Below are positions 6,930 through 10,911 of a stretch of 64,000 bases of DNA, piece after piece. The stretch covers positions 288,001-352,000 of the forward strand of contig JBEKFP010000001.1 of the NCBI GenBank assembly GCA_050013255.1, read 5' to 3'. The stretch is from Candidatus Bathyarchaeia archaeon. GTDB taxonomy: Archaea; Thermoproteota; Bathyarchaeia; 40CM-2-53-6. Numbering within the stretch: position 1 is the stretch's first letter; each line of letters opens with the position of its first letter. Position numbers and translations under genes: made by a program. The notes under the pieces are model-generated. The model saw only the letters and a list, made by a program, of their open reading frames with translations, did no database searches and was not told where the DNA came from.

Positions 6930-7415
6930 TTGGTTGAGGGTAGATTGCCGAGGAAAACTTCGATCAGCGAGAGCAAAGAGGCCCCCGATTTCGCCCTCGT
7001 GGACCATGCGGGTAAGTTGGTAAGGCTTCGTGATTTTCGCGGGAAAAAGGTTGTTCTCTTCTTCTATGTTCGCGATGATACGCCAGGGTGTACGAAGGAA
7101 GCGTGCAGCTTCCGTGACGGCTATGGACCCTTGAAAGCCAGGGGTGTTGTGTTGCTAGGCATCAGCCCAGACCCGATAGAATCGCACAAAAGTTTCGCGG
7201 ACAAATACGATCTTCCGTATCCTTTGCTTGTTGACGCGAAGGCGGAGTTCGCAAAGAGGTTCGGCGTTTGGGGTAAGAAGAACATGTATGGCAGAACCTT
7301 CTTTGGGGTAATTCGCTCCACTTTCATCATCAACGAGAAGGGTAAGGTGGTGAAGGAATACAGGCGTGTGAAGGTGGATGGACACTTGGACCAAATTCTC
7401 AAGGACTTGGGATGA
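6930..7415 (+). CDS. bcp: Peroxiredoxin (BCP/PrxQ)
   Basis: FFY..DDTPGCTKEACSFRD motif. Confidence 0.92.
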   Translation: MVEGRLPRKTSISESKEAPDFALVDHAGKLVRLRDFRGKKVVLFFYVRDDTPGCTKEACSFRDGYGPLKARGVVLLGISPDPIESHKSFADKYDLPYPLLVDAKAEFAKRFGVWGKKNMYGRTFFGVIRSTFIINEKGKVVKEYRRVKVDGHLDQILKDLG

Positions 7416-7915
7416 CCATTAGGGCAACTGTCCTTAGCAGTGTAAATCCCATGGTAAACTTGGATGTCGCGTATGTCCCAACCCCCAAGGACATCGTTCG
7501 AAGAATGCTGAGGCTGGCAAGCGTACGTCGCGGTGAAACCGTTTTCGACCTTGGAGCGGGAGACGGGCGCATCCTGATTGAGGCGGTGAGAAGGTTTGGG
7601 GCTAAAGCCATAGGCGTGGAGGTGGACCCGGAACGCCTGGTTCGGATCAAAGAACGACTAACCGCGACTGGCACAGAGGCCGCGGTGATCCAAGGAGACT
7701 TTATGGAGGTCAACGTCTCTTCGGCCGATGTTGTCGCCATCTACCTTTCTGACTCTGTCAACGCTAAGCTGGCATCAAAGCTGAAGAACGAGCTCAAAGC
7801 TGGGGCGCGGGTCGTTTCCTTGGATTATACACTCCCAGGCTGGGCACTAGAGAAGGAGCTGACGGTCAAAAGCGGTGGTATTTCGCGCAAAATATACCTC
7901 TATAGGGTCGAATGA
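7412..7915 (+). CDS. Class I SAM-dependent methyltransferase (aKMT-like protein-lysine methyltransferase)
   Basis: YVPTP, DLGAGDGR and GARVVS motifs. Confidence 0.85.
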   Translation: MTIRATVLSSVNPMVNLDVAYVPTPKDIVRRMLRLASVRRGETVFDLGAGDGRILIEAVRRFGAKAIGVEVDPERLVRIKERLTATGTEAAVIQGDFMEVNVSSADVVAIYLSDSVNAKLASKLKNELKAGARVVSLDYTLPGWALEKELTVKSGGISRKIYLYRVE

Positions 7916-8029
7916 GTCACGCACGTGCCATAGGAAAGTGGCATCTACATAAGTTACCCAGATGCCGGTCGAAACTTGTAAATAAAGAAGCATGCTACGC
8001 AGGTAGCAGGTTAGCATAGGGGAGGTGAG

Positions 8030-8248
8030 TTGTTGTCTAAGTTCAAGCTCCTCCTTCCTGCTATAGTCCTGGTCGTCTTAGTAGTCCTAATTCTGACCTC
8101 AAGCAACGCAAGTTACTTTTCGCCCGCCTGGTTATCCAAGGCTCTCTTGGGTGATGGAACTGGCGGAGGCGGACACGGCATTGCTAAGGCACTCTTGGGT
8201 GATGGTACTGGAGGCGGCGGTCACGGTCTCGCTAATGCTCTATTCTAG
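8030..8248 (+). CDS. Small exported/membrane precursor peptide with a duplicated KALLGDGTGGGGHG unit
   Basis: GGAGGTGA SD before TTG; N-terminal hydrophobic helix; repeat copies differ only at synonymous sites. Confidence 0.85.
   Translation: MLSKFKLLLPAIVLVVLVVLILTSSNASYFSPAWLSKALLGDGTGGGGHGIAKALLGDGTGGGGHGLANALF
8138..8227 (+). repeat. Two 42-nt coding repeat copies with a 48-nt period (8138-8179, 8186-8227)
   Basis: 6 nucleotide differences, all at synonymous third positions. Confidence 0.95.
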
Positions 8249-8343
8249 AGAGGGGAACTTCCAGTTCATCCTCCTCCCGTTTTTGTGCAAAATATAAAGC
8301 TATTATACTCGCTGAGCCATCCCCGCTGAAACGGCGAACAAGG

Positions 8344-9507
8344 ATGCTTGCGACCGAGAAGGTTGGGTTCCTCCAAAGACACAAAATTGTTACGGAGATC
8401 ATTAAGCAACTCGACAGTACGAATATCAAGATTCTTTCCGCCTTGTGGGAAACTGGCCCACGGAACCTTCTCGAAGTTTCTCGGAAAACGGGAATACCAT
8501 TTACCTCTGTGTATCACCGTGTGGGCAAAATAGAGACAAAGTCGAAACGCCTCGCCGCTGTAATTCCGCAGGTTTCCAAACTTGGAATGGTGAGGATGGT
8601 TCTTCTCACCACTGCGAATCCGGGCTTCGAAGAGAGCGTAACTGCGGCGTTGAAAATACCAAACCTTTGGCGTTCCGTGAACCGATGCGAAGGCGCCTTC
8701 ACACACCTGTCAGTTCACGTCGTCCCCATACAATTCATGAAACATTTCAGGACATACCTGAAACGACTTTCCGAATTAGATTTGATTAAACAATCGAAAG
8801 TGTTCCTTGCAGGAGAATACATCCCTAACTTCCCGGCCTTCAAGTACTACGACCCTGCCTCTAATCAATGGACATTTGACTGGGGGCGCTGGTTGAACGC
8901 GCTTAAGCGGGACCCCACTAAGACGATCGAAGACCCGGAAAGCTATGCTATGCTTGCGGATGAGAAAGACCTAATGATTATCAAGGAACTTGAGAAGAAT
9001 GCCCGAAAGAGCTTCGCAGAGATTGCGCCGTTGTTGGGAATATCTTTGCAAGGCGTCAAGTACCATTACGACAAGAAACTGGTGCCATCTGAAATTGTGA
9101 AGTATTTTGGTTTCGATGTCTGGCCGTATCCCGAAGAAGTGTCGGCTTATCATGAGGTCTTGCTTAAGTTTACTAGCAGCGTAGAGATGAACCGGTTCTT
9201 CAGCTTAGTCGATGAGTTGTTCTTTGTACTCGGTGTCTCGAAGGTCCTACATCATAACTCGCTGATGGTACGAACCTACATGCTACAGAGCCAGGTGTGG
9301 AGCATGTTCTCTTTCTTCTCTCAAATGGCAAAGGAAGGAATGCTTGAGTCATATTCTTCTGTTAGGCAAGATTTCAGCGGCAGAGAGACACAATCAATAT
9401 CGTACGAACTCTTCGACCGCGAGAAGGGATGGACTTTCGATTTGGATAACTGCCTGTCAGAGCTGGCGAAACTAACTCAACTCACGCCAGTGGTCCAAAA
9501 GGTCTAA
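8344..9507 (+). CDS. Tandem (double) Lrp/AsnC-type wHTH transcriptional regulator
   Basis: Two AsnC-like HTHs (LDSTNIKILSAL..VYHRV; DEKDLMIIKELEKNARKSFAEIA). Both halves end in a WTFD motif. Confidence 0.82.
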   Translation: MLATEKVGFLQRHKIVTEIIKQLDSTNIKILSALWETGPRNLLEVSRKTGIPFTSVYHRVGKIETKSKRLAAVIPQVSKLGMVRMVLLTTANPGFEESVTAALKIPNLWRSVNRCEGAFTHLSVHVVPIQFMKHFRTYLKRLSELDLIKQSKVFLAGEYIPNFPAFKYYDPASNQWTFDWGRWLNALKRDPTKTIEDPESYAMLADEKDLMIIKELEKNARKSFAEIAPLLGISLQGVKYHYDKKLVPSEIVKYFGFDVWPYPEEVSAYHEVLLKFTSSVEMNRFFSLVDELFFVLGVSKVLHHNSLMVRTYMLQSQVWSMFSFFSQMAKEGMLESYSSVRQDFSGRETQSISYELFDREKGWTFDLDNCLSELAKLTQLTPVVQKV

Positions 9508-9510
9508 TGC

Positions 9511-9664
9511 TGGTCCCGCGGGCCGGATTTGAACCAGCGACGCTCCGGTTTCCGTTGTTAGCCTAGTAGGCTGACATGGGTACGCCTTGGGCGCACACCT
9601 ACAGCGTCTCCGTCGCTCCGAATAAGAGAGACTCGGAAGCTCTACCAGGCTGAGCTACCGCGGG
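9511..9664 (-). tRNA. tRNA-Tyr(GTA) with two introns (30/31, 37/38)
   Basis: CCCGCGG/CCGCGGG acceptor with A73. Removing 9606-9633 and 9550-9598 gives TCCGG-CTGTAGA-CCGGA, 77 nt. Confidence 0.9.
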
Positions 9665-10248: not shown

Positions 10249-10911
10249 CTATCGCTGCGACCGTCCACACTTCTCGCAGAACGTTAGGTCCCTGGTATTC
10301 TTCGCGCTGCAGAATTTGCATTTCCAGCGATCAGTTTGACCTGAAATTGCGTCATGCTTTTGTCCACTCTTGATTCCGAGTAGGCATAGGATGATTCCTA
10401 CTAGCAAGATCTCGTAGCCGGCGAACTCGATAATTGGATTCAGGAGGGTTGCGTTCTCGACGGTGTTTAAGCTGAAGATTACGACTCGGCGAGCTGTGTC
10501 CTGGTTGTCGAAGACGAAGTAATAGGTGCTGCTAGTTGTGGGTGTGAAGGTGAAGTTGGAGGAGATGACCGTTGGCCGCGCTAGGATGATTGCGCTGGGC
10601 TCTCCTGCTCGCCATTGTGAGAAGTTTCCCTGGTCCATCACGTAGAATGCTACTTCATGCCCATCCGCAACTTCCAACGCCCCTTCCACTTGGGTGCCCC
10701 CTCTTAGGTCGGCCGAGAGGGCGGTGTAGTTTGTGGCTGGCACTGCTATGAGTGTGGTGGGTAGGACTGGGATCTCAGTCTGATAGTGCGATGCTAAACC
10801 CAAGGTCTGTGCAATTGGGCTGAGAAACAGTGGGCCCTGCTCAAGCGTAAACACTCCCGCTAGGAACAGGAGCAGGCCGATTGTCAAAATTTTCCTTCGC
10901 ATCGTGGTCAC
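10249..10911 (-). CDS. Membrane protein with a GOLD-like beta domain and a C-terminal RanBP2-like zinc ribbon
   Basis: N- and C-terminal TMs; YYFVFDN; WKCKFC..N...FCEKCG. Confidence 0.75.
   Translation of the reverse strand: MTTMRRKILTIGLLLFLAGVFTLEQGPLFLSPIAQTLGLASHYQTEIPVLPTTLIAVPATNYTALSADLRGGTQVEGALEVADGHEVAFYVMDQGNFSQWRAGEPSAIILARPTVISSNFTFTPTTSSTYYFVFDNQDTARRVVIFSLNTVENATLLNPIIEFAGYEILLVGIILCLLGIKSGQKHDAISGQTDRWKCKFCSAKNTRDLTFCEKCGRSQR

Follow-up and report, generated by a model that had tools for sequence, protein, structure and literature searches.

A candidate exported-peptide gene conserved beside a tandem Lrp/AsnC-type gene in one genus of Bathyarchaeia

The window analysed here is a stretch of 64,000 nucleotides from Candidatus Bathyarchaeia archaeon (GTDB lineage Archaea; Thermoproteota; Bathyarchaeia; 40CM-2-53-6), taken from contig JBEKFP010000001.1 of GenBank assembly GCA_050013255.1 (positions 288,001 to 352,000 of the forward strand). 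It contains a small gene encoding the 72-amino-acid (aa) precursor of a predicted exported peptide, and the open reading frame (ORF) of a 387-aa tandem Lrp/AsnC-type protein (8344-9507) begins 95 nt past the peptide stop. The best explanation, to which we give a probability of about 55%, is that these two genes form a conserved module of one Bathyarchaeia genus, in which the promoter of the peptide gene is likely controlled by the regulator; this reading is drawn from sequence comparison and from analogy with known Lrp/AsnC proteins. In many relatives, a third small gene encoding a cytoplasmic micro-protein, here called CxHC, belongs to the module.

The tandem-Lrp gene adjoins the peptide gene in all of the family members whose neighbourhood was examined (19/19), 11 of these loci coming from species-representative genomes and eight from family members on metagenome contigs. 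Regulator homologues were extracted from the species-representative genomes and their flanks were scanned for the peptide gene, which lies 35-110 nt upstream of the regulator, and co-oriented with it, in the species-representative loci listed here. This is the arrangement in the window's clade (G000, G014, G004, G013 and G019, together with one metagenome contig), in G020 and G011, and in a separate paralogue clade (G002, G003 and G009, with a decayed remnant in G012). Six divergent family members on metagenome contigs were likewise all next to a tandem-Lrp gene (6/6), four being co-oriented and two divergently transcribed. In a regulator tree of 47 rows, computed with a quick IQ-TREE run, the peptide-bearing genes fall in two separate clades (SH-aLRT 96 and 99) located at different genomic places. 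The pairing is thus seen in two regulator paralogue clades, in both orientations and in five or more gene contexts unrelated to one another. In the window's clade, the order is methyltransferase, peptide, regulator and thioesterase (MT-pep-reg-4HBT), while the second paralogue clade has an MBL-fold protein, an unknown protein, the peptide, the regulator and a 589-aa surface protein; in other contexts the pair follows a PPIase or a metallophosphatase, or the regulator and CxHC genes are divergent from the peptide gene. Because adjacency is kept across clades, contexts and orientations, the pair behaves as a module whose two genes underwent duplication, relocation and inversion together; it is confined to a single lineage of genus rank.

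The peptide gene was found in 10 of the 23 genomes of the window's genus and in none of 36 genomes from four sister genera, with at most one copy per genome in the genomes examined; in G009, a further member of the genus, the copy is cut by the contig end. A blind scan for a Shine-Dalgarno sequence, a basic start and a hydrophobic core near the closer regulators returned exactly the known peptide genes and nothing else. Beside 28 distant regulator homologues (30-41% identity), the same scan, which recovered all the known peptide genes, found no exported micro-peptide. The initial annotation had proposed that secreted small ORFs would recur by double-Lrp homologues, which holds in one genus, in varied contexts and orientations, and fails for the 28 distant homologues. 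A contig profile search with the regulator alignment retrieved only Bathyarchaeia-type loci, with no Asgard relative among them and a few in bacteria-labelled metagenome-assembled genomes (MAGs). The contigs concerned (L092, L095, L098, L099, L126, L132 and L136) come from MAGs labelled Methylomirabilota, Acidoferrum, Acidiferrales, Dormiibacterota and Verrucomicrobia, and these archaeal regulator contigs are probably binning contamination.

Two loci show the pair in an altered state. In G012, a decayed peptide-gene remnant (L016:736-825) lies 100 nt 5′ of a clade-I regulator and retains a Shine-Dalgarno-like site, a start and AAGD-GGGGG, with no hydrophobic core. In G016 (G016:C1:1348432-1349812, L040), the peptide and CxHC genes upstream are intact, but the regulator itself is divided by one in-frame TGA into two pieces that overlap; it is either a pseudogene or the result of an assembly error.

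The peptide gene is genuine, and purifying selection acts on it, with pairwise dN/dS values of 0.15-0.37 among four short-form orthologues. The TTG start of the window's 72-aa ORF lines up with the ATG of the orthologues, and the GGAGGTGA 8-mer is located 1-8 nt 5′ of the start in the six orthologues examined (6/6). Hence several features pointed out in the initial annotation are sustained by the comparison: an ORF with a perfect Shine-Dalgarno sequence, a signal-like helix on a gene under selection, which conforms to a Sec-type signal peptide by sequence rules, and a double-Lrp/AsnC protein about 95 nt downstream, with two helix-turn-helix (HTH) matches and WTFD-ending halves. Neither the peptide nor the intergenic regions had a match in Pfam, NCBIfam or Rfam.

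The peptide family amounts to about 65 sequence clusters, all unannotated, from Bathyarchaeia that inhabit mostly peat and soil. A profile built from seven orthologues in synteny (alignment A1) retrieved 50 clusters (90% identity) from a collection of 5.8 billion proteins, and an exhaustive hidden Markov model (HMM) search of 1.84 billion representatives gave 26 family members. These proteins are 37-82 aa long, of metagenome or MAG origin, and belong to no Pfam family. The commonest form is 43-45 aa long and consists of M-(S/F)-(K/R)-x-K, a hydrophobic run of about 17 residues, a short polar segment and V-x-A, after which the tail G-D-x-x-G-G-G-x-H-x-I-I-x-A-L-L runs to the stop. In these short forms, A occupies position -1 in 47 of 47 sequences and V position -3 in 46, followed by G-D; the signal part measures 28 aa in 34/47, and the tail past the predicted cut 15-17 aa. 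The His of the tail is common and not universal, being missing in P0053, P0054, P0058, P0063 and P0065. In a long subfamily (58-82 aa), to which the window's member belongs, an insert of 13-14 residues replaces the -1 Ala, and the tail comprises one or two units; the corresponding S28-L40 insert of the window's protein is absent from the 43-45-aa forms.

The ancestral layout of the gene is a single 15-17-aa tail ending the protein, and two-unit precursors, such as that of the window, occur in at least nine clusters, most family members being single-unit. As reported in the initial annotation, two 14-codon copies (8138-8179 and 8186-8227) differ at six sites, six of them synonymous and none non-synonymous (S=11.7 and N=30.3 sites), an outcome with a probability of about 0.278^6 = 5e-4 if the differences were random. 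The Tandem Repeats Finder reports a period of 48 nt, or 16 codons, with 2.0 copies at 8138-8235; between the complete units G41-L56 and G57-F72 there are 11 nucleotide and three residue differences. The units GDGTGGGGHGIAKALL and GDGTGGGGHGLANALF abut with no spacer between them and run up to the end of the protein. The same annotation had divided this region into Gly-rich cores flanked by recognition spacers, which proved wrong: because the duplication comprises the complete 16-aa tail, head to tail and with a 48-nt period, the presumed spacers correspond to the hydrophobic end of each unit and not to recognition sequences.

The precursor has some likeness to those of the yeast alpha-factor, of fungal Kex2-processed repeats and of the cyanobactin PatE, in which a signal peptide is followed by tandem short units, with both copies here under purifying selection. 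It differs from these multi-copy precursors in that there are two copies only, which abut without a dibasic or recognition spacer, and in that the family is mostly single-unit. In the contexts examined, the neighbouring genes included neither tailoring enzymes nor proteases of the PatA/PatG or Kex2 type, and no enzyme of the type that tailors ribosomally synthesised and post-translationally modified peptides (RiPPs) adjoins the peptide gene in the window, as had been noted at the outset. Since the units abut without a spacer and such proteases and tailoring enzymes are missing from the neighbourhood, the precursor reads as not cyanobactin-like, contrary to the layout first suggested.

The partner protein has two HTH_AsnC/HTH_24 matches, at residues 24-62 and 206-243 (PF13404, E 4.2e-12; PF13412, E 1.3e-12), and the motif WTFD closes each half (residues 176-179 and 363-366). 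The AlphaFold2 model, built from a 32-row alignment (pLDDT 91.4, pTM 0.88), consists of two consecutive halves, each with a winged helix-turn-helix (wHTH) and a beta-alpha-beta-beta-alpha-beta fold, extended by a beta-hairpin/helix segment of about 40 residues that ends in WTFD. In this model, each half has a predicted C-terminal RAM-type domain, while the Pfam family AsnC_trans_reg gave no match in the 387-aa protein. For each half, Foldseek retrieved archaeal and bacterial Lrp/AsnC (FFRP) regulators (9w4w, 7fby, 2dbb, 2cyy and 2gqq) with a probability of 1.0 and a TM-score of 0.6-0.7 per target; several of these matches were solved with amino-acid ligands (L-Ile, Gln, Leu and Phe complexes). 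The protein has no membrane segment and is of the cytoplasmic type.

At full length, the best structural match was NirDL (4ch7, E 1.2e-10, TM-score 0.55/0.66), and NirDL and AhbA-AhbB are the only solved structures sharing the fused double-Lrp architecture. This raises the question of whether the 387-aa protein could be a siroheme decarboxylase of the NirDL/AhbAB type, with an adjacency unrelated to gene control, in favour of which the canonical AhbA/B C-terminal domain (PF17805) was not found elsewhere in the window genome. However, identity to NirDL is 10-12%, the regulator HTH models match (HTH_AsnC-type, E 4e-12) while Pfam (E <= 0.1) returned neither AsnC_trans_reg2 (PF17805) nor the NirD-like HTH, neither heme nor nir genes adjoin it, and 2-6 paralogues per genome occur in varied, non-heme contexts, so that an enzymatic role of this kind is extremely improbable. 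Because of the HTH matches, the lack of NirD/AhbA-specific signatures and the paralogues in varied contexts, the protein is read as a transcription factor rather than an enzyme, with the caveat, already mentioned, of the missing AhbA/B domain. The neighbouring genes encode a peroxiredoxin, a methyltransferase, a thioesterase, an MFS transporter and an HtrA-like protease.

Eight orthologous intergenic regions were aligned, and the non-coding elements read from this alignment suggest that the peptide gene and the regulator gene each have their own promoter (Table 1). A second conserved box, ATAAGTTACC, is located about 28 nt further upstream of the TTGTAAATAAA box and may serve the divergent CxHC gene.

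In the proposed mechanism, the precursor would enter the Sec pathway, and signal peptidase I, an archaeal gene for which is present in the window genome, would cut after V-x-A, or after S-N-A in the window's long form. The product would be a released or loosely membrane-associated peptide of 15-17 residues, with a Gly-rich and usually His-containing head and a hydrophobic II-x-ALL tail; that of the window genome would comprise two such units in tandem. Lrp/AsnC regulators commonly control the adjacent gene, as AsnC does for asnA, LysM for lys and BkdR for bkd, hence the tandem-Lrp protein would most likely bind the conserved promoter region and control the expression of the peptide. The module resembles these systems in the wHTH and RAM-type fold of each half and in that the regulator adjoins, and is sometimes divergent from, a conserved partner gene. 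It differs in having two Lrp units in one chain, each with the WTFD-ending segment, and in that the partner is a tiny exported peptide and not a metabolic enzyme or operon.

Several observations weigh against this explanation. Regulator orthologues without the peptide gene are found in G015, in G007 and in the CxHC clade described below, therefore the regulator has other roles too. In the footprint of the eight intergenic regions, no clear palindromic operator was seen, two AT-rich boxes aside. The secretion signal was judged by sequence rules (a basic n-region, a hydrophobic core of about 17 residues and V-x-A), according to which the layout is that of a Sec-type signal peptide; the long subfamily has N-A-S-Y or N-V-S-Y instead of V-x-A, which leaves the cut site of the window's member less certain than that of the short forms. 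Finally, the hydrophobic core is long enough for an uncleaved anchor. The peptide could therefore be a single-pass membrane micro-protein with its N-terminus inside and a Gly-rich tail of 15-45 residues outside, which would have an envelope or membrane role and be merely a target of the regulator, with no diffusible product. The core and its flanking T/G residues are near transmembrane length, the II-x-ALL end would favour membrane association and the loss of the canonical site in the long subfamily points the same way. However, the near-invariant V (-3) and A (-1) that close a signal part of fixed length in the 47 short forms, with G-D next, are what is expected of a signal peptidase substrate, and the tandem duplication copies exactly the part lying after the cut, which makes a permanent anchor unlikely.

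The preferred reading of an exported peptide under the control of its neighbour could be extended to a signalling loop of the RRNPP kind. In such a loop, the exported peptide or a C-terminal fragment would accumulate, be imported by an oligopeptide ABC transporter, bind the RAM-like domains and alter transcription, the two units doubling the dose. The RRNPP systems are defined by a propeptide of 10-100 aa, a Sec/signal peptidase I signal, a cytoplasmic DNA-binding receptor of 250-500 aa, TPR repeats and direct adjacency (PMC10075063). Four of these five features have a counterpart here, namely a small propeptide (72 aa in the window and 37-82 aa across the family), a Sec-type signal, a 387-aa partner with two HTH domains and no membrane segment, and adjacency in the 19 loci, whereas the TPR model has no match in the partner, the fold of which is a double wHTH plus RAM. 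The likeness to the RRNPP(A) cassettes of Bacillota and phages (Rap-Phr, PlcR-PapR, NprR-NprX and AimR-AimP) extends to the two adjacent genes, to the propeptide of 40-50 aa, which at 43-45 aa matches those of the Phr/PapR/NprX type, and to its basic start, hydrophobic core, signal-peptidase site and short C-terminal product (PMC10075063). The differences lie in the fused double-Lrp/AsnC partner in place of a TPR protein, in the archaeal host and in the frequent CxHC third gene. Hence the module may work like an RRNPP cassette and is not a member of the RRNPP family.

A loop of this kind would also account for an adjacency that outlasts duplication, relocation and inversion, for the presence of at most one peptide copy per genome examined and for the purifying selection on both internal copies. 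The window genome encodes ten SBP_bac_5 peptide-binding proteins, and therefore uptake of the peptide is possible, although this evidence is permissive and not specific. On the other hand, no peptide importer is linked to the module, and the RAM pockets of Lrp proteins are known for amino acids and other small molecules, as in the ligand complexes mentioned above. A strict ligand-receptor dependence is further opposed by the intact peptide gene that G016 keeps beside its interrupted regulator, by the regulator orthologues that persist without a peptide and by the failure of the pairing to extend to the 28 distant homologues. Co-folding of the regulator (A2) with residues 27-72 of the precursor (A3), run without controls, gave a score of 0.01 and a mark of 0.32, which speaks neither for nor against binding. 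On balance, such a loop is a possibility that we consider rather doubtful. The same holds for its fullest form, a doubtful archaeal cell-cell circuit in which a Phr-like propeptide would yield a pheromone of about 16 residues (GD...ALL), or a shorter C-terminal fragment, read by a double-Lrp receptor whose RAM fold was recruited for this purpose. To our knowledge, archaea have no described communication system that is based on peptides, and a literature search found no archaeal peptide-plus-Lrp system, in agreement with the initial annotation. A secreted small molecule in Haloferax was named the first characterised archaeal quorum-sensing signal in a 2026 paper (PMC13286277).

The peptide could also be an antimicrobial, archaeocin- or bacteriocin-like, Gly-rich and membrane-active, and produced under the regulator. 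It is small, exported and Gly-rich, has a hydrophobic end and is patchy within the genus (10/23 genomes), as would suit such a compound. However, no recurring immunity gene, dedicated transporter or maturation gene lies beside it in the contexts examined, its mature part has a net charge of -1 or -2 in 36/47 short forms, unlike most membrane-active peptides, and its sequence is conserved and not diversifying (dN/dS below 0.4), all of which renders this role very unlikely.

Table 1. Features of the locus, with positions counted from the first letter of the window.
Feature	Position	Strand	Description and basis
Methyltransferase	7412..7915	+	resembles archaeal protein-lysine N-methyltransferase aKMT (NF041081, E 8e-33, below cut-off)
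TTGTAAATAAA box, probable BRE (B-recognition element)/TATA element of the peptide gene	7976..7986	+	about 44-45 nt before the start; invariant
Shine-Dalgarno sequence GGAGGTGA	8021..8028	+	1 nt ahead of the peptide start; invariant at eight orthologous loci
Peptide precursor gene	8030..8248	+	72 aa; TTG start and TAG stop within the coordinates; ORF list and ortholog comparison
Predicted Sec signal peptide	8030..8110	+	residues 1-27: basic n-region LLSKFK, hydrophobic core, S-N-A ahead of the predicted cut
13-residue insert S28-L40, SYFSPAWLSKALL	8111..8149	+	long subfamily only; end of the insert resembles a unit tail; alignments A1 and A3
Unit 1, GDGTGGGGHGIAKALL	8150..8197	+	16 aa; length and pattern equal the whole mature tail of the short forms
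Unit 2, GDGTGGGGHGLANALF	8198..8245	+	16 aa; terminates the protein
T-run past the peptide stop, possible archaeal terminator	8280..8284	+	T-rich block in 7/8 orthologous regions
AAAATATAAAG, probable TATA box of the regulator gene	8289..8299	+	conserved AT-rich block about 45-55 nt before the ATG
Tandem (fused double) Lrp/AsnC-type protein	8344..9507	+	387 aa; two HTH matches in Pfam; AlphaFold2; Foldseek

The CxHC micro-protein is 47-85 aa long and was detected by HMM in 22 loci. Its motif reads C-(D/E)-H-C...L-V-G-x-K-V...I-M-K-R-V...H, without a hydrophobic segment, and corresponds to no Pfam family; Pfam and Atlas feature searches gave sub-threshold matches only (XylR_N, E 0.017, on a longer relative; TetR_C-like clusters, 0.87). 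The gene occurs in three arrangements. It can lie directly upstream of the regulator, the peptide gene being absent, in what we call the CxHC clade; a paralogue in the window genome itself (G000:C1:1393158-1393403; L003:1240-1434) belongs to it. It can be divergent from the peptide gene, as in G013, G016, G019, G020 and G011, or it can form with the regulator an operon divergent from the peptide gene, as in L067 and L068. Further examples are L045:4729-4920(-), L011:1248-1457 and L067:3748-3888(-), and the window's own locus is without a CxHC gene.

In many genomes, with or without the peptide gene, the methyltransferase gene and the regulator gene are in synteny. The methyltransferase was considered as a tailoring enzyme of the peptide and rejected, as it adjoins peptide-less regulators (L007, L013 and the CxHC clade) and is absent from other peptide contexts. 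In L067 and L068, a 250-aa secreted protein with a HELGxxLG zincin-like motif (L067:4282-5037(-) and L068:4286-5029(-)) adjoins the peptide gene in the divergent arrangement; it had no Pfam match and may serve as a protease in processing. Three contexts also have, 0.1-2.4 kb from tandem-Lrp genes, a gene for a membrane protein that combines an extracellular domain with one transmembrane segment and, at its cytoplasmic C-terminus, a zinc ribbon (window 10249-10911 (-); L048:3833-5620; G000:C1:1390433-1391095). There are only about 18 such proteins in the genome, or roughly one per 137 kb, and they might be signal-transducing partners. A suspected homology between the GOLD-like 220-aa protein of the window and the 250-aa protein of L067 was dismissed, BLASTP showing no similarity (E 1.8). 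On the minus strand of the window, the reverse complement of 9509-9545 reads like the T-arm, 3′ acceptor strand and CCA of a tRNA; this stretch is convergent with the regulator gene and ends 4 nt past its stop, and no tRNA was called there by ARAGORN and Rfam.

The peptide-regulator module is new and well delimited, its role in signalling is plausible, and the pair is a good candidate for archaeal gene control linked to a peptide. It offers a testable combination of two synthesisable 16-residue peptides, a soluble 387-aa protein with a confident model and conserved promoter DNA, from uncultured and globally abundant Bathyarchaeia of peat and soil. If the peptide does act as a signal, the module would let archaeal cells communicate through a peptide circuit. 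Should it be no more than a regulated exported product, the locus would still add an unannotated small-protein family, the CxHC family and a family of fused double-Lrp regulators to the regulatory parts known from archaea.

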